This document shows positions 3,685-55,267 of a stretch of 55,267 nt of DNA, one piece after another; the first letter of the stretch is position 1; each line of letters starts with the position of its first letter. This DNA comes from Candidatus Omnitrophota bacterium. Lineage in GTDB: Bacteria; Omnitrophota; Gorgyraeia; JABMRN01; RBG-13-46-9. The notes beneath the pieces were generated by a model. It worked only from the letters and a program-made list of their open reading frames with translations. It ran no database searches and was not told the DNA's origin. A program made the translations under genes and the position numbers. Where the stretch lies: NCBI GenBank assembly GCA_043817155.1, contig JBDRHE010000003.1:1-55267 (forward strand), in the 5' to 3' direction.

Positions 3685-4047
3685 AAGAAAAGAACAGAAT
3701 TCCTTCCCCAGAAAATGTTTACCTCGCCTGATTTAGAGAACGCCTTTTATTGAGATAAGAAGAGGGGATGCCGCAACTCACCCCACACAAAATGTGTGGG
3801 GTTCAAACATTGGCGGCATCCTTTTTGTATGAAAATGTTCCTACAAAGGAAACCTCTTCTCATCTCAATAAAAGGCTAACATTTTCAAATGGGGCCCCTT
3901 TGAATTCTGTTCTTCTTCTTTTTGGACGTGAAGAGGTCAGAGTAGATTGTCGGTAAAGAGAGAGAATTAAGTCGGCTACAGAATTGCCCCACACGAGCGC
4001 TGTTTGAGCATGTAAGCCAAAGGTGAGGGGCTTTGGTGCAGGCTCAG
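3685..4047. repeat. Family G composite palindromic element G1 (modules N, K, L)
   Basis: Nested stems 3685-3702/3902-3920 and 3742-3765/3853-3876; modules shared with the elements at 8.3, 27.6-28.0 and 51.5 kb. Confidence 0.8.
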
Positions 4048-4178
4048 AAACGTCCCTATCCATTATTAAAATTCTTGCAAGATTTCCTGAAAAAGTAGGT
4101 AAAGTTGGGTATACTTAGTAAATAATGTGATAGAGAGGCGCATAGTACTATACCACATAATATGTTTATAAGGATAAG

Positions 4179-6125
4179 ATGCCTACATATATAAAACTGT
4201 TAACGATAGCTGCCGGTGCGATCTGCATAGTGCGTATTTTCTACGGACTTATTCAAAAGAAGCGGGATAATAAGATAAGGGACGGGTTCGAAGGAAGGGC
4301 ATGCGAAATATTAGAGAACGCGCCGTTCGGTATGTATGTTGTAAACGATAATGGGGGCATTGACTACGTAAATATTGCCATGGCAAAGATGGCCGGGACT
4401 ATTCCCGAAAAGTTCAAAAGCATCAACGCGCTTACCCTGCCTACCTATGTGGAGATAGGATTGTCTAAAAAGATAGAAGAGGCATTGGCCGGTAACACAT
4501 TTGAAATGAGGTCCGTCAGGTATAGATCGTTCCCGGGCAACAAGAAGACCATAAGAAATTTTAGCGGCATGCCGTTTAAGGACGGTGAAGACAAGAAAGC
4601 GCTCGTCTTCGTAGAAGACATCACGGCTCACGTATTTACTGAAGAGGCGCTCGTTGAAGAGAAAAATATGGCCCAGGCCTATTTTGATCTTGCGGAGATG
4701 ATCGTTGTTATTCTGGATGTGAAAGGCCGGATCGCTCACATTAACCGTATGGGTATGGAGATGCTCGGTTCCGGCAAAGGGGAGCTGGTCGGGAAGAGCT
4801 GGTTCGACCTCTTCGATCCGGCGAAGACCAAGAAGGATATAAGCTCGATGTTCGAAGATCTCGTCTCCGGGATAACCGATAAAATAGAATACTTCGAAAC
4901 ACCCGTATTGACATCGAAGGGTGGAGAGGCAAGGATCATAGCATGGCATTATGTGACGCTCAAGGATTCAGAAGGCAATGTTGTAAACGTTCTCGGTTCA
5001 GGAGAAGATGTGACGGATCGCAAGGATGTAGAAGAGAAGATCAGGCGTCTGGCCAATTTTACATCAGAAAATCCTCAGCCGTCTTTGAGGATAGCCGAGG
5101 ATGGCGTACTTTTATACTCAAATGCCGCCAGCTTACCGATCCTGGCCGATTGGGGCGTGAAGGTCGGGGATTCTGTACCCGCCCAGTGGCGTAGCCTTGT
5201 TGAAGATGTGCTTAATTCGGGTTTAAGGGAGAACGTGGAGGTGAGGTGTAAGGGGCAAGTCTACGCATTTGCCGTAGTTCCCATAAAAGAGGCGGTCTAC
5301 GTGAATCTATATGGGCGGGATATAACGGAGGAGAAGAAGGCGATCGAAAAATTGAAAGCCGCCTACACCCAGCTTAAAGAGACGCAGTCCAATCTTATTC
5401 AGGCTGAGAAGATGCATGTGGTAGGTACCCTGGCTAGCGGTATAGCGCACGAGGTTAAGAATCCGCTGGCGGTAATAGCACAGGGTATAGAATTCTTTTC
5501 CAGGAACATTAAGACCAAAGACAAGAACCTGCATGATGTGCTAAAATATATGGATGAAGCGGTTAAAGGCGCCGATAACATAATAAAGGGTCTACTTGAT
5601 TTCAGTAGTGTTTCAAAACTAGATATGCAGCCGGAAGACCTGAACGCTGTTTTAGATCAATCACTGATGCTGGTAAAACACCAATCCGATAAATACGATG
5701 TTAAAATTGTAAAGGATTTCGGGGTACTTTCAAAGATAAAGATGGATAGAAACAAGATCAACCAGGTCTTTGTGAATCTATTTTTGAATGCTCTCTACGC
5801 GATGCCAAAAGGTGGAGAGCTGTCGATAAAGACTTATACTAAAAAATCTATCAGGAGGGGCTTCGGTTTAAAGCAGGAGAGCAAAGATGTTCTGGAGATC
5901 GAGGAGGAGATAACGATCGCTGAGATCGAAGATAGCGGAACAGGCATCCCGGCAAAGGATCTCGGCAGAATATTCGACCCGTTCTTTAGCACAAGGCGCG
6001 CCAAGGGAGGAACGGGTCTTGGCCTTTCGATCGTAAAGAACATAATCGATATGCATAACGGGAAGATAGAGATAGTGAATAGAGCCACTGGTGGGGCGAA
6101 GGTAACGGTCACACTTAGAACATAG
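4179..6125 (+). CDS. Membrane-anchored multi-PAS sensor histidine kinase
   Basis: N-terminal TM, PAS/PAC repeats (EDIT, EDVTDRK, RDITEEK), H-box AHEVKNP, N-box NLFLNA, DSGTGI, GTGLGL. Confidence 0.93.
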   Translation: MPTYIKLLTIAAGAICIVRIFYGLIQKKRDNKIRDGFEGRACEILENAPFGMYVVNDNGGIDYVNIAMAKMAGTIPEKFKSINALTLPTYVEIGLSKKIEEALAGNTFEMRSVRYRSFPGNKKTIRNFSGMPFKDGEDKKALVFVEDITAHVFTEEALVEEKNMAQAYFDLAEMIVVILDVKGRIAHINRMGMEMLGSGKGELVGKSWFDLFDPAKTKKDISSMFEDLVSGITDKIEYFETPVLTSKGGEARIIAWHYVTLKDSEGNVVNVLGSGEDVTDRKDVEEKIRRLANFTSENPQPSLRIAEDGVLLYSNAASLPILADWGVKVGDSVPAQWRSLVEDVLNSGLRENVEVRCKGQVYAFAVVPIKEAVYVNLYGRDITEEKKAIEKLKAAYTQLKETQSNLIQAEKMHVVGTLASGIAHEVKNPLAVIAQGIEFFSRNIKTKDKNLHDVLKYMDEAVKGADNIIKGLLDFSSVSKLDMQPEDLNAVLDQSLMLVKHQSDKYDVKIVKDFGVLSKIKMDRNKINQVFVNLFLNALYAMPKGGELSIKTYTKKSIRRGFGLKQESKDVLEIEEEITIAEIEDSGTGIPAKDLGRIFDPFFSTRRAKGGTGLGLSIVKNIIDMHNGKIEIVNRATGGAKVTVTLRT

Positions 6126-6140
6126 ATGGGAGGCAATTAT

Positions 6141-6524
6141 ATGGAGAGAAAACGGGTACTTATCGTTGATGATGAAGAGAACTTTGCGCATATAGTTAAG
6201 ATGAATCTCGAACAGTTCGGCGATTACGAGGTACAGGTTGAGACAAGGCCGCAAGCTGCCCTTGACAGCGCGCTACGATATAATCCTGATATCATCCTGA
6301 TGGACATAGTAATGCCGGACCAAAATGGCCTGGAAGTGCTGGAAAAATTAAAGAAGAACAAGAGGACCATGTCAATTCCTGTAGTTATGATGACGGCTGT
6401 CGATGACAACGATACAAAGATAAAAGCGTCACAAGAGTTCAGCGAAGGTTACCTTGTAAAGCCCGTAAACACAGAAGCTTTAAAGGCGAAGATAGAGGAA
6501 GTTTTAGGCAGGCGACCGAGGTAA
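6141..6524 (+). CDS. Single-domain response regulator (receiver)
   Basis: LIVDDE, MDIVMPDQNG, YLVKP; ATG 6141 follows GGAGG. Confidence 0.92.
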   Translation: MERKRVLIVDDEENFAHIVKMNLEQFGDYEVQVETRPQAALDSALRYNPDIILMDIVMPDQNGLEVLEKLKKNKRTMSIPVVMMTAVDDNDTKIKASQEFSEGYLVKPVNTEALKAKIEEVLGRRPR

Positions 6525-6532
6525 GGGGTTTC

Positions 6533-7933
6533 ATGAAGTTGCTATTTGCGTCTTCGGAGGTAGATCCTTTCGCCAAAACCGGGGGCCTCGCTGATGTAAG
6601 CGGGAGCCTCCCGAGAGCGCTCTTGTCTATTGGTTGCGAAACTACTGTTATCCTACCATTCTATAGATCCGTAAAGAAATTGGGCATCCCCCTGCCATCT
6701 TTAAAAATCGCAGAATTCGATTATAGAGAATATACAAAGGATGGCGTAAAATATATATTCGTTGTTAACGAAGAGTATTATGACAGGGACAATCTATATT
6801 CAGAGGCCGAGGGCGATTACGGGGATAACGATCTGCGTTTTTCACATTTTTGTAAAGCGATCGTAGCTTATGCGCTTGGAACTGATGCCGGCTGGGACAT
6901 CATACACTGCAATGATTGGCAGACGGGACTGGTCCCGATCTATTTGCAGCTTCGCAAATCTCCGATAAAGACGCTCTTTACCATACACAATATAGGTTAC
7001 CAGGGCCTGTTCAAAAGAGACGCGCTCGGCAAGCTGGACATCCCCGGGAGATTCTATAAAATAGAAGGGATCGAGTATTACGGCAAGATATCGTTCCTGA
7101 AGGCCGGTATCGTCTATTCAAGCGCCGTAAGCACTGTCAGCAAAGGATACAGGGACGAGATCCTTACGCCGGAATTTGGATGCGGGATGGACGGGATCTT
7201 AAGAACCCGCTCTTCCTGCGTATACGGTATTCTAAATGGGGTAGACTACAGCGAATGGGACCCTGTACAGGATAAGCACATTATATCCAGATACAATGCG
7301 GAAAGCATCGAAAAGAAGGTAGATTGCAAGAAGGATCTCATCGGGGCTATAAACTTTAGGAATGAAACCCTCGAAAGGCCGCTTATAGGCGTCATATCGC
7401 GACTAGCCGAGCAGAAGGGGATAGATCTTATAGTCGGAGCTGCCAAGGAGATCATAGACCTGGGGGCAAGTATCGTTATATTGGGAACGGGGGATGAGCG
7501 GTACAATAGCCTGTGCAAGAGCATGCAGGAAGGGCATCCGCTCTATATATCGAGTCAGATAAAATTCGATAACAGCCTGGCTCATAAAATAGAGGCCGGC
7601 AGCGATATGTTCGTTATGCCTTCGAGGTATGAGCCCTGCGGGCTGAATCAGCTGTACAGTTTAAGATATGGGACATTACCTATTGTAAGGGCTACGGGAG
7701 GTCTTGACGATACGATCGTTGATCTTTACAAGGATAAGGATAATGGCAATGGTATTAAATTCAAGGATGCGACCGAAGAGGATCTTGTAGACGCAGTTTC
7801 GCGGGCAATCGCCCTTTACAGGGATAAAGGCAGGTGGCAGAGTATATTGAAACGAATTATGAAGATGGACTTCTCCTGGAAGAGATCGGCCCTGCGCTAC
7901 AAAGAACTTTACGAAAAGATTCTTAAGTCATAA
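6533..7933 (+). CDS. glgA: Glycogen synthase (GT5)
   Basis: KTGGLADV, HCNDWQ, FTIHNIGYQG, PSRYEPCGLNQ. Confidence 0.95.
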   Translation: MKLLFASSEVDPFAKTGGLADVSGSLPRALLSIGCETTVILPFYRSVKKLGIPLPSLKIAEFDYREYTKDGVKYIFVVNEEYYDRDNLYSEAEGDYGDNDLRFSHFCKAIVAYALGTDAGWDIIHCNDWQTGLVPIYLQLRKSPIKTLFTIHNIGYQGLFKRDALGKLDIPGRFYKIEGIEYYGKISFLKAGIVYSSAVSTVSKGYRDEILTPEFGCGMDGILRTRSSCVYGILNGVDYSEWDPVQDKHIISRYNAESIEKKVDCKKDLIGAINFRNETLERPLIGVISRLAEQKGIDLIVGAAKEIIDLGASIVILGTGDERYNSLCKSMQEGHPLYISSQIKFDNSLAHKIEAGSDMFVMPSRYEPCGLNQLYSLRYGTLPIVRATGGLDDTIVDLYKDKDNGNGIKFKDATEEDLVDAVSRAIALYRDKGRWQSILKRIMKMDFSWKRSALRYKELYEKILKS

Positions 7934-7969
7934 TTTCGTTTCTCATTTCCAGCGCAAACTGAGCAGCCC

Positions 7970-8586
7970 GGGAGGCTTAAGCATAAAATATTATTCAAAG
8001 ATTCTCTTTTAGATTTATGACTCTCAAAACCGAATAAGAAGGCAAGCCCCGTTCCAAATCGCCCTATAAAAGCATTTGGATAAAGAAGATGTTCTCTGCG
8101 CAGAATACTTTTGCAATAGCTAAAAGTTCTAGTGGGCGATTTGTAACGGGGCTTGCCGCTCTCTAAGATGAACGATCATCTTAGAGAGCTCTCATCCAAA
8201 TTTCATATTGTCATAAAAGGACAAAAGATTGTCCTAAGATGTCATAATTCTTTATGGATCGATTGTATATGAAATTTGGAGAGTCGCTACAGAATTGCCC
8301 CACACGAGCATCATTAGAGCATGTCAGCCAGAGGTGAGGGGCTTCGGCGTGGGCTCATATTCTTCTTTTGTCTCTTTACAAGGTGAGAGTTGGTAATACA
8401 AGGTCTTCGTATATCTTGGCTTACGGTATTTCCTAAAGATACCAACGATCACCTTATAAAGAGACAAGATAGAAGAATCTCGGCATAATATTTTATGCTG
8501 AGCCTGTACCAAAGGCCCTCACCTACGGTGCGCTTTTTTACGGGGGATTCGGAAGAGCAAGCGGAAGAATTGTACTATAGCCGGCA
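7970..8586. repeat. Family G composite palindromic element G2 (modules L, M plus private hairpins)
   Basis: Hairpins 8041-8157, 8159-8188, 8196-8280; module L 8283-8357 resembles 3971-4047; module M 8332-8524 is the near reverse complement of 55082-55267. Confidence 0.8.
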
Positions 8587-8620
8587 AAATGTTTATGATG
8601 AATCTTAATGCATAGTAATA

Positions 8621-8649
8621 TTGACAATACAGCTAAATCTTAGTATACT
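8621..8649 (+). promoter_or_regulatory. Putative sigma70 promoter for pgk
   Basis: TTGACA-17 bp-TATACT. Confidence 0.75.
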
Positions 8650-8684
8650 ATTGTACTCATTGTATAATTTAAGGAGGTTTCTCT

Positions 8685-9863
8685 ATGAAGAAGACGATAA
8701 AGGATTTTGATATAAAGGGGAAGAGAGTGCTTATTAGAGTGGATTTTAACGTTCCCTTAGACGAGGCGCGAAATATAACGGATGATATCAGGATCAGGAA
8801 ATCTCTCGAAACCATAAAGTATGCCCTGAATGCGCCATCTAAAGTTATTCTTATGAGTCACCTTGGAAGGCCTGAGGGCGAGGTCAAGCAGGCTATGAGT
8901 TTAGCGCCCTGCGCTATTAGACTTTCACAATTGTTAGACAGAGACGTTAAGATGCTCAGCGATTGCGTAGGTTCCGATGTCGAAGAGGCAGTCGGCAAGA
9001 TGCGGGATAACGAAATAGCGCTTTTAGAAAACTTGAGATTTCATAAAGAAGAGACGAGGAATGACGCCGAATTTGCCAGGGCTCTTGCAAACCTTGGTGA
9101 TCTCTTTATAAACGACGCTTTCGGTACCTGCCATAGGGCGCATGCTTCTACAGCCGGGATAACGAAATTCCTACCAAGCGGCATGGGTTTTTTGGTAGAG
9201 AGAGAGGTAAAATATTTTGGCAAGCTGCTCGATAGTCCGGAAAGACCGTTTGCCTTGATCCTGGGGGGAGCGAAAGTCGCCGATAAGATGGGTGTAATTG
9301 AGAACATGTTAAAGATGGTAGATTACATTCTTATAGGCGGGGCGATGGCTTATACGTTCCTGAAGTCGCGTCTTAAAGGCGTGGGTAATTCGAGGATAGA
9401 AGTGGATAAGATCGAACTTGCATCCGACATCTTTAGCAAGGCCAGGGATAAGAATGTAAGCATATTTCTTCCCGAAGATCACGTTGTATCGAGAACAATA
9501 GCGCCAAATGCGAGAGCTAAAGTGGTAAGAGAACATGTACCTGATGGATGGATAGGACTTGATATCGGCCCCAGGACCATCAAAAAATATGAAGATGCAT
9601 TGAGAGATGTAAACACTGTGCTATGGAACGGCCCCCTGGGCTATTTTGAATTGAAACCTTTTAGAAAAGGAACAACAGAGATCGCAAAAGTCGTATCACG
9701 TCTTAAAGCTACAACGGTTATAGGTGGGGGCGATACTGCAGCGGCGATAAATGCTCTGGGGCTTGCGGATAAGATGAGTCATATATCCACAGGCGGCGGG
9801 GCATCCCTGGAATACCTGGAAGGCAAGGAACTCCCAGGGATAGCGGCGCTGAATGACAGATGA
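8685..9863 (+). CDS. pgk: Phosphoglycerate kinase
   Basis: RVDFNVP, SHLGRP, LLENLRF, NDAFGTCHRAHAS, HISTGGGASLE. Confidence 0.97.
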   Translation: MKKTIKDFDIKGKRVLIRVDFNVPLDEARNITDDIRIRKSLETIKYALNAPSKVILMSHLGRPEGEVKQAMSLAPCAIRLSQLLDRDVKMLSDCVGSDVEEAVGKMRDNEIALLENLRFHKEETRNDAEFARALANLGDLFINDAFGTCHRAHASTAGITKFLPSGMGFLVEREVKYFGKLLDSPERPFALILGGAKVADKMGVIENMLKMVDYILIGGAMAYTFLKSRLKGVGNSRIEVDKIELASDIFSKARDKNVSIFLPEDHVVSRTIAPNARAKVVREHVPDGWIGLDIGPRTIKKYEDALRDVNTVLWNGPLGYFELKPFRKGTTEIAKVVSRLKATTVIGGGDTAAAINALGLADKMSHISTGGGASLEYLEGKELPGIAALNDR

Positions 9864-9869
9864 TGAGAC

Positions 9870-10274
9870 CGTCTTTGCGAGGTGCCGTCGATATAGCTGC
9901 AGATTTTAAGCTACGAGGGACGAGGGACGAGAGACGATTCGTAATTACTCGTCTTTGCGAGGTGCCGTAAAAAGGTGAGCGCACCGAAGCAATTTGCTAA
10001 GTCTGTCTTTGCGAAGTGCCGTAATATAACGAGCGCACTGAAGCAATCATTTCTCCACTCGTCTTTGCGAAGTGCCGTAATATAACGAGCGCACTGAAGC
10101 AATCTCAGACTAGCTCGATGAGATTGCTTCGGCACGTTCGAATATTACGGTGCCTCGCAAAGACGAGGTGAGATGAGATTGTCCCGCCGTTACTATCGTA
10201 TGGCGGGACCCCACCATGCGAAGCATGCGGTGGGGCTTCGGCACACTCGAATATTCCGGTGCCTCGCAAAGACG
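9870..10274. repeat. Family B REP-like array with a nested family D hairpin and a short ACGAGGG heptamer run
   Basis: Four left arms GTCTTTGCGA(G/A)GTGCCGT..GAAGCAAT (first partial), two right arms GAGATTG..CCTCGCAAAGAC; D inside the last right arm at about 10182-10236. Confidence 0.9.
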
Positions 10275-10290
10275 AAGGAAAAGGCCATAT

Positions 10291-11478: not shown

Positions 11479-13087
11479 AAGAATACCTTTAAACAGGATC
11501 GTTATCAAAGAGATACCGCTATGTATCATAATAGCGGTATTTTTTTTCACGTCCGTTTCTTACGCCCGCGACTACGGCGATGCATATGTAACCGGCCAGA
11601 TAGGAGACGCCCGAACCCTCGTCCCCATACTTGCTTCTGACAGTCCATCATCATACATCGTGGATCTCGTTTTTGACGGGCTTGTAAGGTACAACAAAGA
11701 CGTGGAATTGGAAGGTCATTTGGCGGAGTCGTGGGATATTGTAGACGACGGCCTTTCGATAGTCTTCCATTTGCGAAAGAACGTAAAATGGCACGACGGC
11801 CACCCCTTCACAGCAAAAGATGTGAAATTCACGTATGAAGCGCTGATAGACCCTAACGTTATCAGCCCTTATAGCGGTGATTTTAAGATGGTAGAGCGCC
11901 TTGAGATTCTGGACGACTACACGGTAAAAGCTACTTACAAAGAACCGTTTGCCCCGGGCCTTACAAGTTGGGGTATGCCTATTATGCCTGCGCATCTATT
12001 AGAAGGAGAGGATCTTAGGGCTACCGACTTTTCAAGGAACCCGGTAGGTACCGGGCCCTTCAAGTTCAAAAGGTGGAAGTCCGGCGATAGGATCGATCTT
12101 CTTTCCAATCATGAATATTTCAAACATAGACCGTATATAGAACGATATATCTATAGGGTAATCCCCGATACAGCCACCATGTTCCTGGAGCTACAGACGC
12201 TGGGTATAGATTCTATGGGGCTTACACCCTTGCAATTCACGAAACAGACCGACATATACCAATTTAAAAGCAGATTTCAAAAGTTTAAGTACCCTTCGTT
12301 CGGTTATACATACATGGCGTATAATTTAAAAAATGAAAAATTTAAGGATAAGAGAGTCAGGCAGGCGCTTAACTACGCTGTCAATAAGCAGGAGCTCATT
12401 GACGGAGTACTCCTTGGGCAGGGAAGGATCTGTACAGGCCAGTTCGTGCCGGAATCCTGGGCATTCAACAAGGACGTAAAGCCGTGTCCCTTCGATCCCA
12501 GTCGGGCGAAGCAGCTTCTTGATCAGTCCGGTTGGCGGGATACTGACCGAGATGGGTGGCTGGATAAGGAGGGCAAGCGATTCGAATTTACAATAATTTC
12601 AAACCTGGGGAATGATAATCGCATGAGAGCGGCGGAAATTATACAGGCAAGGTTAAAAGATATAGGCATAAAAGTTCATATAAGGATATTAGAATGGGCG
12701 GTATTCATAGATGAGTTTGTGAACAAGAAGAGATTCGAAGCATTGATAATGGGTTGGGGCCTTGGCAGGGAGCCGGATTGTTACGATATATTCCATTCCT
12801 CAAAAACGGAGGAAGGTGAATTCAATTTTATAAGTTACTCCAATCCCGAGATCGATGGACTTCTTTTAGAAGGTCGCCGTACATTCGATAGGGAGAAGAG
12901 GAAGGCCGTCTACCATAGAATCCATGAGATAATCTACGATGATCAGCCTTATATGTTCCTGTATATACCGGATTATCTGGTTGCGGTCCACAACAGGTTC
13001 CAAGGCATAGAACAATCTCCGATAGGCATACACTATAACTTTATAGATTGGTGGGTGCCGAAGGATCGGCAGAGGTACCAATACTAG
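11438..13087 (+). CDS. Peptide ABC transporter substrate-binding protein (family 5); start uncertain
   Basis: LRKNVKWHDGHPFTAKDV, PVGTGPF, signal-like hydrophobic stretch; TTG start overlaps secG. Confidence 0.9.
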   Translation: MSLLQNPKSLHRTKRIPLNRIVIKEIPLCIIIAVFFFTSVSYARDYGDAYVTGQIGDARTLVPILASDSPSSYIVDLVFDGLVRYNKDVELEGHLAESWDIVDDGLSIVFHLRKNVKWHDGHPFTAKDVKFTYEALIDPNVISPYSGDFKMVERLEILDDYTVKATYKEPFAPGLTSWGMPIMPAHLLEGEDLRATDFSRNPVGTGPFKFKRWKSGDRIDLLSNHEYFKHRPYIERYIYRVIPDTATMFLELQTLGIDSMGLTPLQFTKQTDIYQFKSRFQKFKYPSFGYTYMAYNLKNEKFKDKRVRQALNYAVNKQELIDGVLLGQGRICTGQFVPESWAFNKDVKPCPFDPSRAKQLLDQSGWRDTDRDGWLDKEGKRFEFTIISNLGNDNRMRAAEIIQARLKDIGIKVHIRILEWAVFIDEFVNKKRFEALIMGWGLGREPDCYDIFHSSKTEEGEFNFISYSNPEIDGLLLEGRRTFDREKRKAVYHRIHEIIYDDQPYMFLYIPDYLVAVHNRFQGIEQSPIGIHYNFIDWWVPKDRQRYQY

Positions 13088-13430
13088 CGTATAGCGGATA
13101 GGATATTAGAAAAATAACGTTTAGCGTATTGCGTAGTGCGTATTGCGTATAGCGAATAGCATATAGCGGATAGGTTGAAAAGATAGAAAATGGCGTTTAG
13201 CGGTTGCGTTTGCGTAACTCGAATCGTTGAACGTAATACGTCTCAGGTAATGGATCAGTGAACGGGTTTTGTTTGTGTTTGTCATCCCCGCGAAAGCGGG
13301 GATCCAGAGGTGGGTCATCGAGAGTACATCCATGGATTCCCGCTTGCGCGGGAATGACAGAGAGAAAACCCATGAAGACTCATCCATTACCGTATCATGC
13401 ATAACGTTTCGAGTTACGCTGGCCGAATAC
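13085..13430. repeat. Nested element: family A left arm plus a long hairpin enclosing a family C REP doublet (13281-13358)
   Basis: Heptamer runs 13085-13203; stems 13212-13240/13391-13419 and 13247-13255/13382-13390 surround the 78-bp doublet. Confidence 0.85.
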
Positions 13431-21874: not shown

Positions 21875-22144
21875 CGTCTTTGCGAGGTGCCGTAATACAC
21901 AAGCGCACCGAAGCAATCTCAGACTAGCTCGATGAGATTGCTTCGGCACGTTCGAATATTACGGTGCCTCGCAAAGACGAGGTAAGCTTGAGATTGCTTC
22001 GGCACACTCGAATATTACGGTGCCTCGCAAAGACGAGGGAAGCTGGGATTGTCCCGCCGTTGCTTTCGTATGGCGGGACCCCGCCATGCGAAGCATGCGG
22101 CGGGGTTTCGGCACACTCGGAAAATATCGGTGCCTCGCAAAGAC
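21875..22144. repeat. Family B array (one left arm, three right arms) with nested D
   Basis: Same arms and AGACTAGCTCGAT spacer as at 10.1 kb; D at about 22052-22105. Confidence 0.9.
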
Positions 22145-22159
22145 AAAAAGGTAATAGCA

Positions 22160-23703: not shown

Positions 23704-23905
23704 GTCTTTGCGAGGTGCCGTAATGTAACAAGCGCACCGACTTGTCTCTCCGAAGCCACACGCGAAAGCAATGTGGCGAAGGAGGAAGCAATGCTCCACT
23801 CGTCTTTGCGAGGTGCCGTAATACACAAGCGCACCGAAGCAATCTCAAGCTAGCTCGAATGAGATTGCTTCGGCACGCTCGAATTTTCCGGTGCCTCGCA
23901 AAGAC
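23704..23905. repeat. Family B array with an E-like insert in the first left arm
   Basis: Two left arms and one right arm; insert CTTGTCTCTCCGAAGCC..GGCGAAGGAGGA interrupts CCGA^AGCAAT. Confidence 0.9.
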
Positions 23906-23934
23906 GAAGCAGAACGTATAAGGAAGTTCGAATT

Positions 23935-27550: not shown

Positions 27551-28362
27551 TAGTAAAAAAGAAGAACAGAATTCATTCCCCAAAGTATGTTTACCTCTTT
27601 ATATTTTACATGACGAAAGGCGATGGGGTGTTCTCCAGGCTCAGCATAAAAGATTATGCAAAGATTCTCTCTTCTTGCCTCTTTATAAGGCGATCGTCGG
27701 TATTTAATGAAATACTGTATGCCAAAATATACGCATACCTAAATTACCGACTCTCACCTTGTAAAGAGACAAAGAGAGAATATTCGCCTAAGGAGAACGC
27801 CCCATTGACTTTCGCGCAATCTGCTTCATACTCATTGATGCAACCTAAAGATAAGCAAAAAAGCTGGGCAGAGATTCTGGAAGCATTTGAAAGATTTTAG
27901 TCTCTTATCTTATGGCTTTAGAGGTTTTCTTTGTAAGAATATTTTCATACAAAAAGGATGGCGCCTATGTTTGAACCCCACACCTTTGGGTGTGGGGTGA
28001 GTTGCGCCTATCCCCTCTAAAGACATAAGAGAAGAGACGGTGACTGCCGGAGGCAGCCAAAAATCTTTCAGCTGACGGAATCTCTGACCAGCTTGCGTTG
28101 GATGTTTTGACCGATGTAATAGATAAGATAGAAGAATCTCGGCATAATAGTTTATGCCGCCCTGTAGAAATTTACCGTTTGTTTGTTAAGGTAAATTTCT
28201 GCAGGGCAAGCGGAAGAATGCATCCCAAAGCAGAGACTTCGGGATTTTGGCTCAGAATACTCTAGCACACTCCAGGCTACTTCATAATCTAGTTGAAGGG
28301 GGCAAGCCACGATTAAGCGCAGCCCACCTTTTGAATTATAACTGACAGAGCCAAATTAATCC
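27551..28362. repeat. Family G composite palindromic element G3 (modules N, M, reversed K, M fragment)
   Basis: N 27556-27597 resembles 3685-3725; M 27623-27805; K 27920-28018; 28121-28157 resembles 8463-8499; closing hairpin 28242-28362. Confidence 0.8.
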
Positions 28363-28391
28363 TTGACATAGCGACGGCAATATGGTATTTT
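28363..28391 (+). promoter_or_regulatory. Putative sigma70 promoter for rplM-rpsI
   Basis: TTGACA-17 bp-TATTTT with TGn. Confidence 0.65.
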
Positions 28392-28413
28392 AACGATTCT
28401 AATTGAGGTATAT

Positions 28414-32737: not shown

Positions 32738-33922
32738 ATGAAGACTAAAGATGTTGTAAGGCTGTACGATAAGTATGTAATGAAGACCTATACGAGGGTA
32801 CCGCTCGTTGTGGAGACGGCAAAAGATTCTCGCGTTATAGATATCGATGGCAAAGAGTACCTGGACTTCTTTCCCGGTTGGGCGGTAAGCGGCATAGGGC
32901 ACTGTCATGACACGGTCATAAAAGCGCTTTCAAAACAGTCGAGGAAGCTTCTCCATGTGTCCAACAATTATTACAGCGTTCTACAGGGAGAACTTGCGCA
33001 GAAGATAATATCTCATGGGTTTCCCGGGAAGGTATTCTTCTGTAATTCGGGTGCGGAGGCTAATGAGGGAGCCGTGAAACTCGCGCGAAGATATGGCAAT
33101 GAGAGGGGGAGATTTGAGATCATTACGATGAAGGGATCCTTTCACGGCAGGACGCTTGCAATGATAGCCGCAACAGGTCAGGATAAGGTTAAATCCGGCT
33201 TTGAACCGATGCCGGAAGGCTTTGTCCATGTCCCGTTCGGAGATATAAACGCCATTAAGAACGCTATAAACGATCGGACGGCAGGTATCGCGCTTGAATT
33301 GATCCAGTGCGAAGGTGGTATAAAAGTAGCGACAAAGGAATATATAGATGAAGTAAGAGACATTTGTGATGCAAGCGATATTGTGCTTATTTTTGACGAA
33401 GTGCAAACGGGTATCGGAAGGACAGGGAAGATGTTCTGCTATCAGAATTATAAAACAGTTCCGGATGTGATGACTCTTGCAAAATCGCTCGGAGGCGGCC
33501 TTCCAATAGGAGCAATCGTAGCAAGATCAAAATTCAGCGATGTTCTGACGCCCGGATCACACGCGTCCACTTTTGGCGGTAGTCCCATCGTGTGCGCGGC
33601 TGCACTCGGCGTTTTTAAAGCGATCGAGGAAGAGGGTCTCTTGCAAAACGCTGTTAAACAGGGCAGGTACCTGATTAAGAAGCTGTCGGCCTTAAAGAAG
33701 AGATATAACGTCATAAAAGAGATAAGGGGTATGGCGCTTACTGTAGGGGTAGAACTCTCTTTGGACGGGCAAGAGATATACGAAAGGGTCCTCGAAAGGG
33801 GATTACTGATAAATTGTACACAGAAGAATGTCCTCAGGATCATGCCACCGCTAACGGTCACGAAGTCACAAATCGATAAGGCGATTGGTATACTGGACGA
33901 AATATTAGCGAATAGCGGATAG
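32738..33922 (+). CDS. argD: Acetylornithine aminotransferase
   Basis: NSGAEANE, SFHGRT, DEVQTGIGRTG, TLAKSLGGG. Confidence 0.93.
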   Translation: MKTKDVVRLYDKYVMKTYTRVPLVVETAKDSRVIDIDGKEYLDFFPGWAVSGIGHCHDTVIKALSKQSRKLLHVSNNYYSVLQGELAQKIISHGFPGKVFFCNSGAEANEGAVKLARRYGNERGRFEIITMKGSFHGRTLAMIAATGQDKVKSGFEPMPEGFVHVPFGDINAIKNAINDRTAGIALELIQCEGGIKVATKEYIDEVRDICDASDIVLIFDEVQTGIGRTGKMFCYQNYKTVPDVMTLAKSLGGGLPIGAIVARSKFSDVLTPGSHASTFGGSPIVCAAALGVFKAIEEEGLLQNAVKQGRYLIKKLSALKKRYNVIKEIRGMALTVGVELSLDGQEIYERVLERGLLINCTQKNVLRIMPPLTVTKSQIDKAIGILDEILANSG

Positions 33923-34079
33923 GTTATTAGAAAAATAACGTTTAGCGTATTGCGTGATGCGGATTAGCGTATTGCGTGATGCGGATTGCGTATTGCGTAT
34001 AGCGGATAAGTTAGGAAGATAAACTTTTCGGAAACGTAAAGTACTAACCTATACGCTATCCGCTATATGCTATACGCTA
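33906..34079. repeat. Family A heptamer-tandem inverted-repeat element
   Basis: TAGCG/TTGCG heptamers, core GAAACGTAAAGTACTAACC, right arm CTATACGCTATCCGCTATATGCTATACGCTA. Confidence 0.85.
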
Positions 34080-34101
34080 GAAGTTAAAGAGAGTTAACAA
34101 A

Positions 34102-35016
34102 ATGAAGAAAGACCTGATCACAATTAAGGATCTCTCCAAGGCGCAGATCCTGGAGCTCTTCAAACTTGCAAAGGCATTAAAGAAGAAGCCGTTATCCAAG
34201 AGTAACAGTTTAAACGGAAAGTCACTCGCGCTCGTCTTCCAAAAACCTTCCAACAGGACACGGGTATCGTTCGATGTAGGCATGTTCCAGCTTGGTGGGA
34301 ACGCAATATATCTTGGACCTGACGAACTGAAGCTCGGGGTAAGGGAATCCGTTAAAGATGTTGCTAAGGTTCTGGCAAGGTATGTTGACGGTGTTGTTGT
34401 AAGGACGCACGAACACCAGGATGTCATAAGCATGGCAGAGGCAGCGACTGTGTCGGTTATAAACGGGTTGAGTAAGCTGCTACATCCTTGCCAGGGTTTA
34501 AGTGATCTGTTTACAATAGATGAGTATTTTAACGATAGGAAGATCAAGATCTCGTTTATCGGAGATGGGAACAATGTGCTCCATTCGCTTCTTCTGGGAT
34601 GCAGCATACTGGGGAGAGACCTTTCAATTGCAACGCCGGTGAATTGCGAGCCCGATCCTGGGATAGTAGCCGAAGCAAAAAGGTGTGCTTTTGCCAACAA
34701 GTCTACCATAGAGCTTACGAATGATCCTAAAGAGTGCGCACAGAATGCGGATGTGATATATACAGATGTGTGGGTCAGCATGGGTCAGGAGTCTTCGCAT
34801 GAAGAGAGGATGAACGCATTTAAAGGATTCCAGATAAACGCTGAGCTACTCGCTTGCGCTAAGGAGAATACCTTGATCATGCATTGCCTTCCGGCTCACA
34901 GAGGTGAGGAGATCACCGACGAAATATTAGATAGTAAGAATTCCATAGTATATGACCAGGCGGAGAATAGGCTTCATGTGCAGAAGGCCATATTGTTGAC
35001 TTTGCTCGGGGGATAA
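34102..35016 (+). CDS. argF: Ornithine carbamoyltransferase
   Basis: KPSNRTR, HPCQ, YTDVWVSMG, HCLP, QAENR. Confidence 0.95.
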   Translation: MKKDLITIKDLSKAQILELFKLAKALKKKPLSKSNSLNGKSLALVFQKPSNRTRVSFDVGMFQLGGNAIYLGPDELKLGVRESVKDVAKVLARYVDGVVVRTHEHQDVISMAEAATVSVINGLSKLLHPCQGLSDLFTIDEYFNDRKIKISFIGDGNNVLHSLLLGCSILGRDLSIATPVNCEPDPGIVAEAKRCAFANKSTIELTNDPKECAQNADVIYTDVWVSMGQESSHEERMNAFKGFQINAELLACAKENTLIMHCLPAHRGEEITDEILDSKNSIVYDQAENRLHVQKAILLTLLGG

Positions 35017-35020
35017 CGAT

Positions 35021-35234
35021 TAGTGTATTGCGTGATGCGTACTGCGTATAGCGGATAGGTTATTAGAAAAATAACGTTTAGCGTGTTGCGTGATGCGGAT
35101 TGCGTATTGCGAATAGCGTTTAGCGGATAGGTTGAAAAGATAGCGTATAGCGAATAGCATATAGCGGATAGGATAGGAAAATAGGCTTTTATGAAACGGA
35201 AAGTACTAACCTATACGCTATCCGTTATATGCTA
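35021..35234. repeat. Family A heptamer-tandem inverted-repeat element
   Basis: Same subunits as the 13.1 and 33.9 kb copies. Confidence 0.85.
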
Positions 35235-35267
35235 GAAATATGCTAGAATAATAATTCAGGAGCCAAT

Positions 35268-37861: not shown

Positions 37862-37914
37862 ATTGGAAGTCTTGTGCAGAGATGGAGCTGCTGTTTTGCA
37901 AGTCCAAAAAACCT

Positions 37915-37992
37915 GTCATTCCCGCGGAAGCGGGAATCCATGGATAGACTCACTACGAGTTCGCTCTGGATCCCCGCTTGCGCGGGGATGAC
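37915..37992. repeat. Family C REP doublet (78 bp, reverse orientation)
   Basis: GTCATTCCCGCGGAAGCGGGAATCCA-26 bp-TGGATCCCCGCTTGCGCGGGGATGAC. Confidence 0.9.
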
Positions 37993-38024
37993 ATGTGGGA
38001 AAACGAGAGGCTAAGATACGGATT

Positions 38025-47633: not shown

Positions 47634-47904
47634 CGTCTTTGCGAGGTGTCGTAAAGAACTAGCGCACCGAAGACCCGCCGCATGCTTCGCATAGCGGGAT
47701 CCCGCCATAAGAAAGTAACGGCGGGACAATCTCCATGTTTGTCATCCCCGCGAAAGCGGGGATCCAGAGTAGGCTTGTAGAAAGTCCATCCATGGATTCC
47801 CGCTTGCGCGGGAATGACAGACTATTGAAAATGAGATTGCCTGCCTACCTGCAGTATGCAGGCAGGCTTCGGCACACTCGAATATTACGGTGCCTCGCAA
47901 AGAC
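47634..47904. repeat. Family B doublet with reverse D in the left arm, a C doublet (47741-47818) in the spacer and a CCTGCC..GGCAGG hairpin in the right arm
   Basis: Direct reading of arms and inserts. Confidence 0.9.
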
Positions 47905-47931
47905 AGAAAAACGAGCCACAGAGATCAGATT

Positions 47932-48600: not shown

Positions 48601-48826
48601 CGTATAATATTCTGTGTAAATTCAACATGGCAGATGGCTACGGCGTGGCCTTTCAGACGAATTTTGTGGCTCACTGCAATTGGTGTATTTAATATTTCTC
48701 GCCGACTCCGGCGGCTTTACTCAATTGCTTTCGTCCGCGCACAAAATTTTCTGTCTTCAAGGCCACACCGTAGCCATCTGCCTTAAGTTACACAAATGGA
48801 ATTGACACAATATTTTTAACGCAACC
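48596..48826. mobile_element. Family F MITE (231 bp) with 8-bp target-site duplication CCACATGC
   Basis: Imperfect TIRs GGTAGCGTATAATATT / AATATTTTTAACGCAACC, internal stem GGCAGATGGCTACGGCGTGGCCTT / AAGGCCACACCGTAGCCATCTGCC, direct repeats at 48588-48595 and 48827-48834, second copy at 1-149. Confidence 0.88.
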
Positions 48827-48925: not shown

Positions 48926-49216
48926 ATGATCTTTGGTCTGTTTAAAAAGAAGAGATCTCTTGCAGAACTCGGCAAGCCTATAGGGGAGATAACACATTTT
49001 TTTCCACATGTCAAGGCAGCGGTCATAAAATTAAAGAGTAGTACCCTATCCGTAGGCGATATCATTTATGTAAAAGGCCATACGACAGATTTTGAGCAGA
49101 AGGTAAATAGTATTCAGGTAGATCACGCCCCGATAGACGAGGCAAGGTCTGGCCAGGAGGTCGGGTTGAGAGTTAGATCGAAAGTGAGGCACGGAGACAA
49201 AGTATATAAAGTTTAG
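48926..49216 (+). CDS. Small beta-barrel protein resembling EF-Tu domain 2 / peptidase U32 C-terminus
   Basis: IGEITHFF, LSVGD.I...G..TDF.Q.V.SIQ, GQEVG, GDKVY; GGAGGT SD. Confidence 0.75.
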   Translation: MIFGLFKKKRSLAELGKPIGEITHFFPHVKAAVIKLKSSTLSVGDIIYVKGHTTDFEQKVNSIQVDHAPIDEARSGQEVGLRVRSKVRHGDKVYKV

Positions 49217-50888: not shown

Positions 50889-50934
50889 TAGAACAATTAA
50901 ATATTTATACTCAAGAGCTATACCGTAGATAGTA

Positions 50935-51806
50935 GTTCAGCTCCCGGAGCTCGCAGTCTGTCTGGGTCGAGAGCTCCGGGAGCTGAACAGCGTTTCTCAT
51001 ACTGCTGTAAAACAGAACAATCGCTATAACAATTTGGCCAGCGGAAGCCATCCACTGCCTTAAAGTACCTTTAACAAGCCTTCTACCGCCATGGTTTGCT
51101 ATAGGAGAGACGGGAAAGAGGGCTAGCTTCGAAGAAGGCCTCTGATAATAATCTGACAAGTAAAAATTATCCTTTGCCATCTTCTATTGTCTTGGGTCGC
51201 CATTTTGTAGAGGGAGAGAAGAAGGAGCCTTCAAGAACTCGCCCCGATAGAAGCGCCTAAAGAGGCGCTAATCGGGGCTCAAACATTTGAAGGCCCTTTT
51301 CGCCTCATATATTACCGCTCTCTCTATAATTCTGTCATACAGAGTAACGGATGTGGCAAATGAAACTTCTTCTCTCCCTCTACAAAATGCCTTAATTTTT
51401 AAGGCTCTTCCAAGCTAGCCCTCTTCCTCGTCTCTTTATGCTAGCCTTAAGGATAAGGAAGGTGCACCCTCTTTGAACGAGCCCTTAAAATTCAGGCATG
51501 TATGTTAGGCCTATTCAAGGTTTTCTTTGTCACATATTATGAGACAAAAAGGATGGCAGATGTTTGAGCCCCACACCGATATTGAGTCTTACGGACGTGT
51601 GTGGGGCGAGTTCTGCCATCCCCTTGAAGAGGCCTAAAATCATGCCGGTCCCGCATCCTTTGTCACTAGATGAGGCGGGAGAATTTTACTTATCTGCATA
51701 TTTGCAGAGGGCTCATCAAAGAGGGTGCACCTTCCTTATCTTGTAGTCGGATGGTTAGCAGGATGAAGGGAGTGCTTGCTTCCGTTGGTTAAACTGTTAC
51801 AATCGC
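50935..51806. repeat. Family G composite element G4, a large multibranched structure with two K modules
   Basis: Perfect stems 50935-50952/50971-50988 (18 bp), 51201-51224/51366-51389 (24 bp), 51452-51476/51716-51740 (25 bp); outer stem 51028-51048/51778-51798. Confidence 0.8.
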
Positions 51807-51873: not shown

Positions 51874-51914
51874 TAAGTTAATAAAAAGGTATAAAGTTAA
51901 AGGGGGTAATAAGC

Positions 51915-52133
51915 ATGAAATACAAGACCATAATTGAAGTAACAAGTGACGCGAGAAATAATGATGAGGCTATCTATATCGCGGGTGAATATTTAAGGGG
52001 AAACATCGAAAGCGGTGTTGAGATTAGGTGCAAGAGTCACCCCAACAGAGCATTCGTGTTAACGGGGTTGACCATCTCACTGGCTCTTGCAATTACTGCG
52101 ATATTTATATCGTCTATCGGGATATGCAAGTAA
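51915..52133 (+). CDS. Small hypothetical protein with C-terminal TM helix
   Basis: Own promoter, AGGGGG SD, hydrophobic C-terminus. Confidence 0.65.
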   Translation: MKYKTIIEVTSDARNNDEAIYIAGEYLRGNIESGVEIRCKSHPNRAFVLTGLTISLALAITAIFISSIGICK

Positions 52134-52237
52134 CGCCGATATCGACACTTTACCCTGATAGGAGAGCGTTGGAATTTTGAAGAGACTATTAAGATATAGG
52201 AGCAAATAAAGAGATAAATAGATCATGGCATAAAAGT

Positions 52238-52283
52238 CCCGTCTTTCTGCGAAAGGGTAATTTTGTGGAAAGATGGGTTTTTT
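52238..52283 (+). terminator. Probable intrinsic terminator
   Basis: CCCGTCTTTCTGCGAAA/TTTTGTGGAAAGATGGG stem plus T6. Confidence 0.65.
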
Positions 52284-52339
52284 ATTGTAATAGATGGAGC
52301 ATTGGTGGTAAAATAGGTATAAATAATGGAGGTGTATAT

Positions 52340-52708
52340 ATGGCAACGTTATTATTGTATGTTATTGGAATATTGTGGATAGTCTCGGGAGCGCTCCTGG
52401 TATTTGCTCCCGATGTATTAAGGAAGAACCTGTTCAATAAATTCAAGAAGATGAATTTAAAGAGGATAAGCATAGTCCCTATAATAGTCGGCATACTTCT
52501 GCTCTTTTCAGCTTCCCAGCACAGATACACCTTCTTAATTATTCTGTTGGGCCTTCTGGCTATCGCTAAAGGGTTCTATGGAATACTGGCGACAGATAAA
52601 GCAACAAAGTTCATGAACTGGTGGATAGATAAGGCCGGGAGCGCCGTCTACCGGGTTCATGGCATACTGGCCATTATCCTTGGGTCTATCGTACTTGTAG
52701 GTATCTAA
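52340..52708 (+). CDS. Four-TM membrane protein (DUF2065-like, uncertain)
   Basis: GGAGGT SD before ATG 52340; four hydrophobic helices. Confidence 0.7.
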   Translation: MATLLLYVIGILWIVSGALLVFAPDVLRKNLFNKFKKMNLKRISIVPIIVGILLLFSASQHRYTFLIILLGLLAIAKGFYGILATDKATKFMNWWIDKAGSAVYRVHGILAIILGSIVLVGI

Positions 52709-52751
52709 AAGCATATCTTTCGATCTTAATTTAAAAGAAGACCCCTTTTTA

Positions 52752-54188: not shown

Positions 54189-54996
54189 GATACTCTACCT
54201 TCTCAAGCGTGGCAGTGACCTCCCCAACAAGCGGTATTTTTAGTATCTTGAGTACTATGTATAATCCAAGACGTTTCTCGTCACTCGAGATGTAACCCCA
54301 GGCGCTTGCGTCCCTTTGCCTCTTTCCTTCTTTCATGACGTACGGTTTCAGGAGGAACGCGTCGAATGCGCCGATCCCGGGGAAGACGACCTCGGCCCTC
54401 TTGCTTATATTAGCGAATATCTCATAGTTTCTCTCATTAAGGTTAACGGTTATCTTTATCGTATCTCCTACCTTTGCCTGGATGGTCCTGAAGAAGAATG
54501 CGGCGCTTACAGGGTCCTGCACATTCTCTTCTATTTTACATGTCTTTACACTGCCATCCAGTAGATTTTTATATATAGCGATCTTCTTATCAAAATCATA
54601 ATCGACTACGAGATCCTTTTTATATCTGCCTTCCCGTTGTATCGACTCATAGTGCCGGCTTATGAGCTTACCGGTGTCTATGTAGGATATGAAGGTATCC
54701 TCCACCTTATAGAGTCTAGATAAAAATTCGTTTGTTCTGGCTATGGCTACTACCTTGTAGACTTCGTAACCTTTGAACGATGTAAGTTCCTCAATGGTTA
54801 TTGTGCCTGTGCCTACCCGTATACCTTTCCACGCAACCATATATGTCAAGCGTTCACCTACGGTAAAAGCCGGAGATGGATCCTCGATCTTTTCCGATAG
54901 GGCTATCTTGGCGGAAGGGCGCCTTATTCTAGCGGTTTTTGCGCAACCCGCAAAAAAGAGAGATGCGAGTATTATAAAAAGAAGTATTCTCTTCAT
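54157..54996 (-). CDS. DUF3108-like lipoprotein
   Basis: MKRILLFIILASLFFAGC lipobox, GE.L.Y...W.GI.VG, QDPVSA; start 54996 or 55005; overlaps the oxidoreductase 3' end by 32 nt. Confidence 0.75.
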   Translation of the reverse strand: MKRILLFIILASLFFAGCAKTARIRRPSAKIALSEKIEDPSPAFTVGERLTYMVAWKGIRVGTGTITIEELTSFKGYEVYKVVAIARTNEFLSRLYKVEDTFISYIDTGKLISRHYESIQREGRYKKDLVVDYDFDKKIAIYKNLLDGSVKTCKIEENVQDPVSAAFFFRTIQAKVGDTIKITVNLNERNYEIFANISKRAEVVFPGIGAFDAFLLKPYVMKEGKRQRDASAWGYISSDEKRLGLYIVLKILKIPLVGEVTATLEKVEYLNSQRRSPDP

Positions 54997-55074
54997 GTCA
55001 CTCATATGATAGCGTAAGCGCTGAGAATTGTAAATCATAAAGTCAGCTGAACAAATACACAGATTGGATCAAGT

Positions 55075-55267
55075 GCGCCAGAGGTGAGGGCCTTCGGTGC
55101 AGTCTCAGCATAAAAAATTATGCCGAGATTCTTCTATCTTGTCTCTTTATAAGGTGATCGTTGGTATCTTTAGGAAATGCCGTAAGCCAGGATATACGAA
55201 TACCTTGTATTACCAACTCTCACCTTGTAAAGAGACAAAAGAAGAATATGAGCCTGCGCCGAAGCCC
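55075..55267. repeat. Family G element G5 (module M), truncated by the window end
   Basis: Near reverse complement of 8332-8524; similar to 27636-27790. Confidence 0.85.

Follow-up and report, generated by a model that had tools for sequence, protein, structure and literature searches.

The contig JBDRHE010000003.1 of assembly GCA_043817155.1 (Candidatus Omnitrophota bacterium) contains five gene-poor loci, at 3685-4047 (locus A), 7970-8586 (locus B), 27551-28362, 50935-51806 (locus D) and 55075 to the contig end, which raise the question of whether they are large structured RNAs, a new class of composite element or mobile DNA of a known kind. The window, meaning the whole stretch of this contig that was analyzed, is 55,267 nt long, and the genome to which it belongs, labeled G000, comprises 1.93 Mb in 92 contigs (labeled C plus a number) and is 92% complete. 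The explanation that we favor, with a probability of about 0.7, is that the loci consist of DNA-level, non-autonomous, MITE/REPIN-like hairpin repeats that have accumulated and nested in intergenic landing zones, as a lineage-specific form of known small mobile DNA.

The loci are mosaics of several repeat families

As originally described, all five loci are poor in open-reading frames, with only two of at least 80 amino acids inside them, at 27610-27900 (+) and 50911-51180 (−), neither of which gave a match in a Pfam scan. All five also folded far better than their shuffles, and modules K, M, L and N were indeed common to the loci, in both orientations and at the coordinates originally given. 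The proposal that the five loci belong to one family did not hold, as they are composites of separate repeat families. At least six of these make up the mosaics, namely M, K, N, P, a T/L motif and a set of small hairpin cassettes, and they sit in the hairpin centers of one another. The module list itself stood for K, M, N and L, except that L turned out to be a single arm within a longer inverted-repeat motif and that a MITE in locus B, P (8047-8151), had not been named.

In locus A, an N element encloses a K composite at 3685-3925 (+), with arms at 3685-3725 and ~3877-3925, an outer stem at 3743-3766 and 3853-3877, and the K core at 3767-3852. Paralogues with 80-93% identity were found in C75 and at three places in C59, and at C37:26589-26685 the N element is present with no K composite in it. 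The left arm of another N element lies at 27556-27597 (+), where 27562-27597 matches 3690-3725 at 89% over 36 nt by BLAST. K at 3761-3857 matches 28018-27920 at 90% over 99 nt; this reversed K (27920-28018) sits in its own basal stem at 27891-28045 (−), which is unlike that of locus A, and its segment 27922-27984 matches 51518-51577 at 83% over 63 nt. At 3971-4047 (+), the T/L motif is combined with the left arm of a type (iii) M basal stem, truncated and without an M core after it, and here L (3975-4046) matches 8286-8357 at 85% over 72 nt. The fold of locus B places a hairpin, Q (8158-8189), beside a branched hairpin, R (8190-8283), at 8158-8283 (+) within a recurring block of ~480 nt, and 8046-8524 has matches of 96.5% identity at C85:5115-5593 and of 97% identity at the end of contig C59.

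Locus D begins with a near-perfect, terminator-like palindrome at 50935-50988, directly after an inositol-monophosphatase gene and recognized from sequence and fold, and continues with a nested branched composite of ~780 nt at 51027-51803 (+) that contains a K variant (51227-51294), with the K hairpin layout as read from the sequence, and a reversed K (51518-51624). Folded as single-stranded DNA, this composite reached −204 kcal/mol (z = −15.7), a value matched by none of 20 shuffles. Its paralogues are in C38 (88% over 552 nt) and C81, the latter lacking 294 nt of the locus D composite and having its K hairpin enlarged by an additional hairpin pair of 82 nt.

Presence of the repeats varies at orthologous spacers

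Modules M, K, N and P were found again in other genera of the same family, and the same architecture is present in G011, a relative whose genome is a complete single contig. A comparison of orthologous spacers for presence and absence, as had been suggested, showed them to be 72–186 nt long in element-free relatives against 750–1000 nt in G000. The glgA-pgk spacer measures 113 nt in G001, 121 nt in G005, 306 nt in G011, 521 nt in G002 and 751 nt in G000. Upstream of rplM, two members of one genus have spacers of 72 nt (G002) and ~600 nt with M and an N-like element (G011), and in genus g2 the corresponding spacer is 186 nt in G001 and ~800 nt with K in G013. Metagenome contigs queried with the pgk protein gave best matches of at most 62% identity, farther than the family relatives. 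Four DNA read sets yielded only short contigs of low depth over 2500-10000, whose few joints fall within genes or stem from other organisms and carry no usable signal of presence or absence.

Module M is a three-way junction with a variable but paired basal stem

The M core occurs in G000 in 24 copies plus 4 partial ones, and is a three-way junction of a basal stem (P1), a long imperfect hairpin (P2) and a small conserved hairpin (P3). The window contains a type (iii) copy at 8322-8535 (+), with P1 at 8322-8356 and 8507-8535 and a core at 8357-8506 that holds P2 and P3 (8483-8498), a reversed type (i) copy at 27613-27810 (−; core 27636-27783), and a reversed type (iii) copy at 55071-55267 (−) that is cut by the contig end. 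The last of these is 93% complementary to 8339-8535 over 197 nt, and the first two match at 82% identity between 8338-8506 and 27803-27636 (BLAST), with 79% over 86 nt between 8439-8524 and 27618-27703. Fragments are present as well: a reversed-M remnant at 7949-8010 (−) is a repeat block with a type (ii)-like basal-stem arm and P3, and 28118-28225 (+) combines half an M (right P2 arm and P3, 28118-28166) with a hairpin cassette (28160-28210), found in other repeat contexts too, and a T-like motif. Folded as single-stranded DNA, M with its stem (8322-8535) gave −50.9 kcal/mol (z = −10.45), equaled by none of 200 shuffles.

The basal stem is paired in every copy and differs in sequence between copies, with ~20-30 bp in 17/17 fully flanked copies. 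In other genera too, the sequences of the junction and P3 are conserved, and P1 and P2 change but remain paired. A count of the P3 motif in 401 genomes of the class gave more than one copy in G000 (22), G011 (11) and G013 (3) only. Single matches to it in other families of the class were set aside, as all 8 that were inspected, and likewise one extra G011 site, were without M architecture, which was also absent around a single match in a Hymenobacter genome. P3 may resemble a Xer/dif-like recombination site; the spacing of its half-sites looked too short for one, and this reading was set aside. No M-free version of the three basal-stem types was found in G000, where C18 has a short terminator-like hairpin that is similar to the first part of type (i), and the ends of aligned M, K and N copies, whose outer boundaries are uncertain, showed no direct repeats that would mark a target duplication.

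This layout might mean that M, K and perhaps the cassettes form an undescribed Y-shaped hairpin element, whose junction and small apical hairpin would be recognized in trans by a Y1/HUH enzyme or a tyrosine recombinase and which would integrate specifically into the tips or centers of other DNA hairpins. We regard this as unlikely; were it true, the basal stem would always be the invaded palindrome, the genome would fill with doll-within-doll structures, and the families would have been inherited vertically across Candidatus Omnitrophota genera.

The conserved junction and the pairing of P1 and P2 despite their variation would also be expected if M and K were genes for multi-copy structured RNAs, with selection on the RNA fold producing the covariation. 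The arm-to-arm change originally quoted, GTTGGTA/TACCAAC versus GTCGGTA/TACCGAC, is real, the corresponding columns (59/113) being C-G in 9, U-A in 6 and C-A in 1 of 16 aligned copies, and an alignment of the M core has 98.7% paired cells, with 5/43 pairs changed on both sides and an observed score that none of 500 shuffles reaches. In K, two changes between the G013 copy and 51518-51624 are each matched on the other arm, as read from the sequence. An RNA of comparable setting, multi-copy, associated with REP arrays and built, like M and K, of two hairpins on one basal stem, is described in a 2026 preprint (10.64898/2026.09.22.753630). Paired inverted repeats would pass covariance and R-scape-type tests under DNA or RNA constraint alike. 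Against the RNA reading, 29/43 M-core pairs are invariant and the five covarying pairs separate sub-families, so that the changes reflect few events. In P1, the 76 mismatches among 561 aligned positions comprise 39 transversions and 37 G·T mismatches, of which 20 are on one strand and 17 on the opposite one, with no wobble excess and no strand or RNA-type bias, and the conserved non-Watson-Crick positions of P2 favor different strands. Orientation is equally unbiased: relative to the local coding strand (the purine-rich strand), 11 M copies point the same way and 13 the opposite way. No Rfam family was matched in the window at gathering score, and in E-value mode, across four loci, the sole hit that fell on an element, between M and a microRNA precursor, is a chance similarity of hairpins. 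The elements also nest in each other and end contigs as repeats do. Together with the short spacers of element-free relatives, these observations run against the suggestion of large structured RNAs, which we consider quite improbable, and the caveat raised alongside it, that arms may be corrected against each other at the DNA level, fits the covariation data better than selection on RNA. For annotation, the loci should be masked as repeats rather than called as RNA genes.

Module P and the hairpin cassettes indicate nested insertion

Module P behaves as a MITE of ~105 nt with 22-bp terminal inverted repeats, which in locus B occupies 8043-8155 including its flanks CAAG and CTTG (element 8047-8151). 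Copies were located by the 18-nt core of the near-perfect 22-bp ends, as inverted pairs ~105 nt apart, giving 8 full copies and one short, internally deleted copy in G000; these are 96-99% identical in BLAST, except for a copy in C4 (85%). A direct 4-bp repeat, CTTG or CAAG, flanks 5/9 of them, the other 4/9 having inverted or mixed flanks. A site in C85 is filled by P with CTTG on both sides and the same site is empty in C59, C71 and C27. Outside G000, a copy in G002 is flanked by CGAG/CGAG and one in G012 by CTTG/CTTG, so that the 4-bp direct duplication is seen in three genera. No autonomous IS with P ends was found in G000 or in 18 genomes of the order, where paired ends were all ~105 nt apart and other ends were single.

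Nesting is also seen in the remaining modules, with N elements that have or lack K and extra hairpins within K loops. In G000 as a whole, 173,001 bases (9%) have another copy. Candidatus Omnitrophota are uncultured and have small genomes, in which ~9% of nested palindromic repeats is unusual, and it is because of this load that assemblies break at these sites. Between paralogous repeat copies, 194 indels of 20-200 nt were found, and 128 of the inserted segments (66%) have a folding energy of −0.40 kcal/mol per nt or lower, compared to 2% when shuffled; the junctions of 115/194 share only 1-2 nt. The commonest cassette is present at the same sequence position in 46 copies of other repeats, which looks like targeted insertion.

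Some of these cassettes resemble re-copied arms of the enclosing hairpin, with 7-nt direct repeats at the junction, and palindromes that were never transposed could grow and be corrected in place by replication template switching at hairpins, spreading by recombination or gene conversion between repeat copies already present. Near-perfect basal stems in spite of copy-to-copy sequence differences would fit such a process, as would the chimeric P flanks in C3, C66 and C72, which suggest exchange between copies, and the lack of an autonomous element in our searches. Against it, neither the loci of the copies nor their flanking sequences are related, P shows both an exact empty site and a direct duplication of 4 bp, and the recurrent cassette position looks like insertion into other repeats; template switching is an unlikely account of these loci. 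That the repeats arose as artefacts of assembly or binning in this metagenome-assembled genome is hardly credible, since despite the 92 contigs and the 7/24 M copies that touch a contig end, many copies are deep in long contigs between ordinary genes, the complete single-contig relative has the same architecture, and 8131-8479 and 3759-4022 are each found in independent public contigs that differ by 0-4 letters.

Candidate mobilizing enzymes and a possible mechanism

NCBIfam and Pfam scans of the window revealed no transposase, recombinase or reverse transcriptase, in agreement with the original statement that no mobilizing enzyme is in the window. The inventory was taken at the genome level with eight transposase/recombinase Pfam families. 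Y1_Tnp was detected in 12/14 genomes of the family; the four M-bearing genomes all have it, as do relatives without M, and profile searches of G000 gave no match to RVT_1, IS110, the TnpB zinc-ribbon family or DDE_Tnp_1. Next to the five Y1_Tnp matches in G000 there are either other low-copy hairpins or no repeats, and M, K, N and P do not flank them. Copies adjoining a Y1 transposase, which had been proposed as a lead, did not materialize: Y1 genes are 2-7.5 kb from M in G000, G011 and G013, with ordinary genes between. The Y1 proteins of M-bearing genomes share only 25-45% identity, and none of them form a group peculiar to these genomes; we judged the proximity to be chance. A cognate autonomous element was found for none of the modules in G000, nor for M in the complete G011.

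Under the favored explanation of MITE/REPIN-like hairpin repeats, several hairpin-forming families without open-reading frames would accumulate in gene-free spacers, with new copies landing in or next to the centers of existing palindromes, and each locus would come to fold as nested, branched stems. Mobilization would take place in trans. P would be mobilized by a staggered-cutting transposase, and M, K and N by a hairpin-recognizing enzyme, for which Y1 (HUH) is the only candidate class in every M-carrying genome. Arm pairing may be kept because the enzyme needs a hairpin or two matching ends for recognition, or alternatively because the arms correct each other during replication.

Comparison with known systems

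A full-text literature search found no published description of these repeats, and the words palindrome, MITE and intergenic do not appear in a preprint of 2026 that surveys complete Omnitrophota genomes. A set of 176 complete Omnitrophota genomes is announced in 10.64898/2026.06.07.730766. One comparison is with TwoAYGGAY-type RNAs (10.64898/2026.09.22.753630), which are similar in overall shape, multi-copy occurrence and association with repeats, whereas the modules here have no Rfam match, shared loop motif, orientation preference or wobble bias. Palindrome-associated elements of the IS200/IS605 type share the dependence on hairpins, the presence of Y1 and perhaps, for M, K and N with their uncertain boundaries, the lack of a target duplication, but here orientation is unbiased (11 vs 13), G000 has no TnpB-family match, and distinct left- and right-end hairpins were not recognized.

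REPINs and REP-BIMEs (RAYT, Y1) are another comparison. PMC3116915 states compensatory changes across the REPIN hairpin, and extragenic hairpin doublets, higher-order mosaics, persistence in related lineages and Y1 genes are further points in common. In M, inverted doublets with compensatory changes were found, with all 17 stems paired and five core pairs double-changed. The differences are that the Y1 genes are not flanked by the modules, that copies number tens rather than hundreds, that the units are larger (~100-210 nt), and that no conserved short tag was found beside the hairpin foot.

The likeness to MITEs extends to short, ORF-less, multi-copy, intergenic elements with terminal inverted repeats, long hairpin folds and copies inside copies, and for P also to the 4-bp target duplication and exact empty site. 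A parent IS with the same ends was not found, M, K and N may differ in that no target duplication was visible at their uncertain boundaries, and M has a conserved junction on a sequence-free basal stem where the usual layout is fixed ends and a variable middle. The proposal of composite non-autonomous elements whose hairpins stay paired when both arms change is supported. That they are a 'new class' does not follow from the data, as P is a MITE by definition apart from the cognate IS and compensatory changes in hairpins are already described for REPINs. Conserved across genera, these families lend themselves to asking how hairpin repeats persist and what recognizes them.

Repeat content of the window and composition of the gene-poor loci

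A self-comparison of the source genome, G000 (1.93 Mb, 92 contigs, 92% complete), identified 173,001 bases (9%) as repeated DNA, and nearly all of the longer spacers of the window, which is one entire contig (C3), coincide with repeat blocks. The genes of the window are ordinary bacterial housekeeping genes, nearly all on the plus strand; a tRNA search found no tRNA genes in it, and no Rfam family matched it at gathering score. The original prediction had assigned five gene-poor loci (A, 3685-4047; B, 7970-8586; C, 27551-28362; D, 50935-51806; E, 55075 to the contig end) to one family, Family G, proposed to be undescribed composite non-autonomous elements or large structured RNAs built from shuffled, covarying modules. 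All of the shared-module matches that it named were recovered at the same positions, and the two ORFs of at least 80 aa inside the loci have no Pfam match, in agreement with the absence of credible ORFs. The loci also fold much better than shuffles do, with z = -10.45 for module M plus its stem (0 of 200 shuffles as good) and z = -15.7 for the 777-nt composite of locus D (0 of 20). These observations are real and well described, but the grouping into one system was not borne out, since the loci are mosaics of unrelated repeat families: M (150-nt core; 24 copies aligned over 100 nt or more, and 4 partial ones), K (about 10 copies), N (inverted-repeat arms of ~40 nt), P (about 105 nt; eight full copies and one short, internally deleted copy), the T/L motif, which is one arm of a longer inverted repeat, and the hairpins Q and R and small hairpin cassettes. 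Larger blocks are copied whole, as 8046-8524 is 96.5% identical to 5115-5593 of contig C85, and locus D has two paralogues, one in C38 and one in C81.

Other repeats were noted in the same contig. An 86-nt element, in which two short G+C-rich palindromes are inverted relative to each other, lies at 13276-13361, 37910-37995 and 47736-47821, and in form presumably resembles the small inverted repeats bounding mosaic intergenic elements of Neisseria. Degenerate ~7-nt repeat arrays in both orientations lie directly 3′ of several genes (1240-1390, 2384-2595, 13055-13200, 33876-34088 and 35013-35250), including between two adjacent paralogous galactose-1-phosphate uridylyltransferase-like genes (198-1259 and 1401-2396). 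The contig start (1-149) is 98% identical to 48678-48826, which adjoins a 96-aa ORF (48926-49216) with a weak, sub-cut-off match to elongation factor Tu domain 2 that may be a gene remnant.

Module P and candidate mobilising enzymes

Module P is a MITE. Its 22-bp ends are near-perfect, and in C85 it interrupts a sequence left continuous in C59, C71 and C27, with CTTG on either side. A direct 4-nt repeat is present at five of the nine G000 copies; the flanks of the other four are inverted or mixed, which we read as exchange between copies. Single copies in two genomes of other genera, G002 and G012, have the same ends as in G000, different interiors, and direct repeats of CGAG/CGAG and CTTG/CTTG, respectively. 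No long, ORF-bearing version of P was found among 18 genomes of the order.

Domain scans of the window proteins supported the earlier statement that no mobilising enzyme is encoded there. Pfam searches of the genomes, covering eight enzyme families, returned five Y1_Tnp matches, two rve matches and two Xer-like recombinases in G000, with no match there to RVT_1, IS110, the TnpB zinc-ribbon family or DDE_Tnp_1. Y1_Tnp is present in 12 of 14 genomes of the family, and therefore in all four M-bearing genomes but also in M-free ones, and the Y1 genes of G000 are flanked by low-copy hairpins of their own. Two of these genes (C22:26189-26966 and C6:20620-21222) each lie between short palindromes of their own, which for the first occur at about 4-5 genomic sites (13 motif matches, mostly overlapping) and for the second just twice in the genome. 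These look like small REP/RAYT-type pairs unrelated to Family G.

Architecture and distribution of module M

All 17 M copies with full flanks share one form, a three-way junction in which a basal stem of about 20-30 bp (P1, distinct from module P), a long imperfect hairpin with ~38-nt arms and conserved bulges (P2), and a small hairpin (P3) are linked by short conserved junction sequences. At least three sequence types of P1 can be distinguished, besides singletons, and each copy is nearly perfectly paired; none of these types was found in G000 without an M. Across 16 aligned G000 copies (that of C64, with flanks near-duplicate of C63, was left out), 98.7% of core cells are paired; both sides have changed in 5 of the 43 pairs, and none of 500 shuffles reaches the observed score, while 29 pairs are invariant and the changes separate sub-families. 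The compensatory base pair cited in the original prediction is among those seen in aligned M copies.

The P3 motif occurs in multiple copies in just three of the 401 genomes of the class, G000 (22), G011 (11) and G013 (3). The M elements of G011, G002 and G013 have the architecture, P3 and junction of G000, with different P2 and P1 sequences. G011, a complete 1.43-Mb chromosome of Candidatus Omnitrophota, carries eight full or nearly full and five partial M copies, none split around an ORF, as well as an N-like element. The K of G013 clearly aligns with that at 51518-51624, from which it differs by two changes that are mirrored on the opposite arm. Elsewhere in the class, eight of eight inspected single P3-motif matches lacked the M architecture, as did one additional site in G011. 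Housekeeping proteins are only 65-77% identical among the element-bearing genomes, indicating that the element cores are conserved by something; most simply, this would be recognition by an enzyme.

Action at the DNA or RNA level

A selected RNA stem would give a one-sided excess of G·U pairs. The mismatches between P1 arms are two-sided (of 561 aligned positions, 20 have a G·T on the plus strand and 17 one on the minus strand, and 39 have a transversion), which argues for DNA. M lies 11 times along and 13 times against the purine-rich (coding) strand, and different conserved non-Watson-Crick positions of P2 favour different strands. The element-bearing spacers are short in relatives without the elements, the glgA-pgk spacer being 113 nt in G001, 121 nt in G005 and 751 nt in the window. 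Within single genera, the spacer upstream of rplM measures 72 nt in G002 versus about 600 nt in G011, where it holds an M and an N-like element, and 186 nt in G001 versus about 800 nt in G013, where it holds a K. Taken together, these sequence comparisons point to maintenance as DNA rather than as a large structured RNA, and compensatory changes across a hairpin have already been described for REPINs (PMC3116915).

Two further spacers were noted. The pgk-tpiA gap (9864-10215) holds about 350 nt of repeats; in four of the five relatives, the gap between pgk and the following ORF is at most 61 nt. Just before rplM, a promoter-like sequence (28362-28413 and loci L066-L070), in which hexamers of -35-like and -10-like sequence stand 17 nt apart, is conserved in six genomes, and the repeat clusters stop directly upstream of it in all six.

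Nesting of hairpin elements

Paralogous copies differ by whole hairpin units, present or absent. The N element of locus A encloses a 133-nt K composite that is missing from N at C37:26589-26685, and in other contigs M sits inside N in its place; the K copies of C59 and C81 have additional hairpins inside the K hairpin or its small side hairpin. Genome-wide, paralogous repeats differ by 194 indels of 20-200 nt, and 128 of the inserts (66%) are strongly self-complementary, compared to 2% of shuffled segments; the junction pair shares just 1-2 nt in 115 of the 194. The commonest cassette occurs 46 times at the same position within one unrelated, very abundant repeat, indicating that nesting at defined sites is a general trait of G000 repeats. 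The abundant repeat is ~47 nt long, has 139 motif matches in the genome and forms inverted pairs (in the window at 9951-10275, 21875-22150, 23704-23907 and 47634-47906), and its one fixed position is either empty or occupied by one of several hairpin cassettes.

Comparison with known elements

Full-text literature searches yielded no account of repeats like these in Omnitrophota, and palindromes, MITEs and intergenic repeats go unmentioned in the main text of a 2026 preprint about complete Omnitrophota genomes. It is improbable that the elements represent a genuinely new mechanism of hairpin targeting. The reading that fits best is that non-autonomous palindromic elements, forming a lineage-specific set, are piled up and nested in a few spacers. 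The set is unusual in that M and K have a conserved three-way-junction layout whose basal stem is free, and in its strong tendency to occupy the centres of other palindromes; in terms of known systems, the set is best read as one classical MITE together with several REPIN-like or MITE-like hairpin elements.
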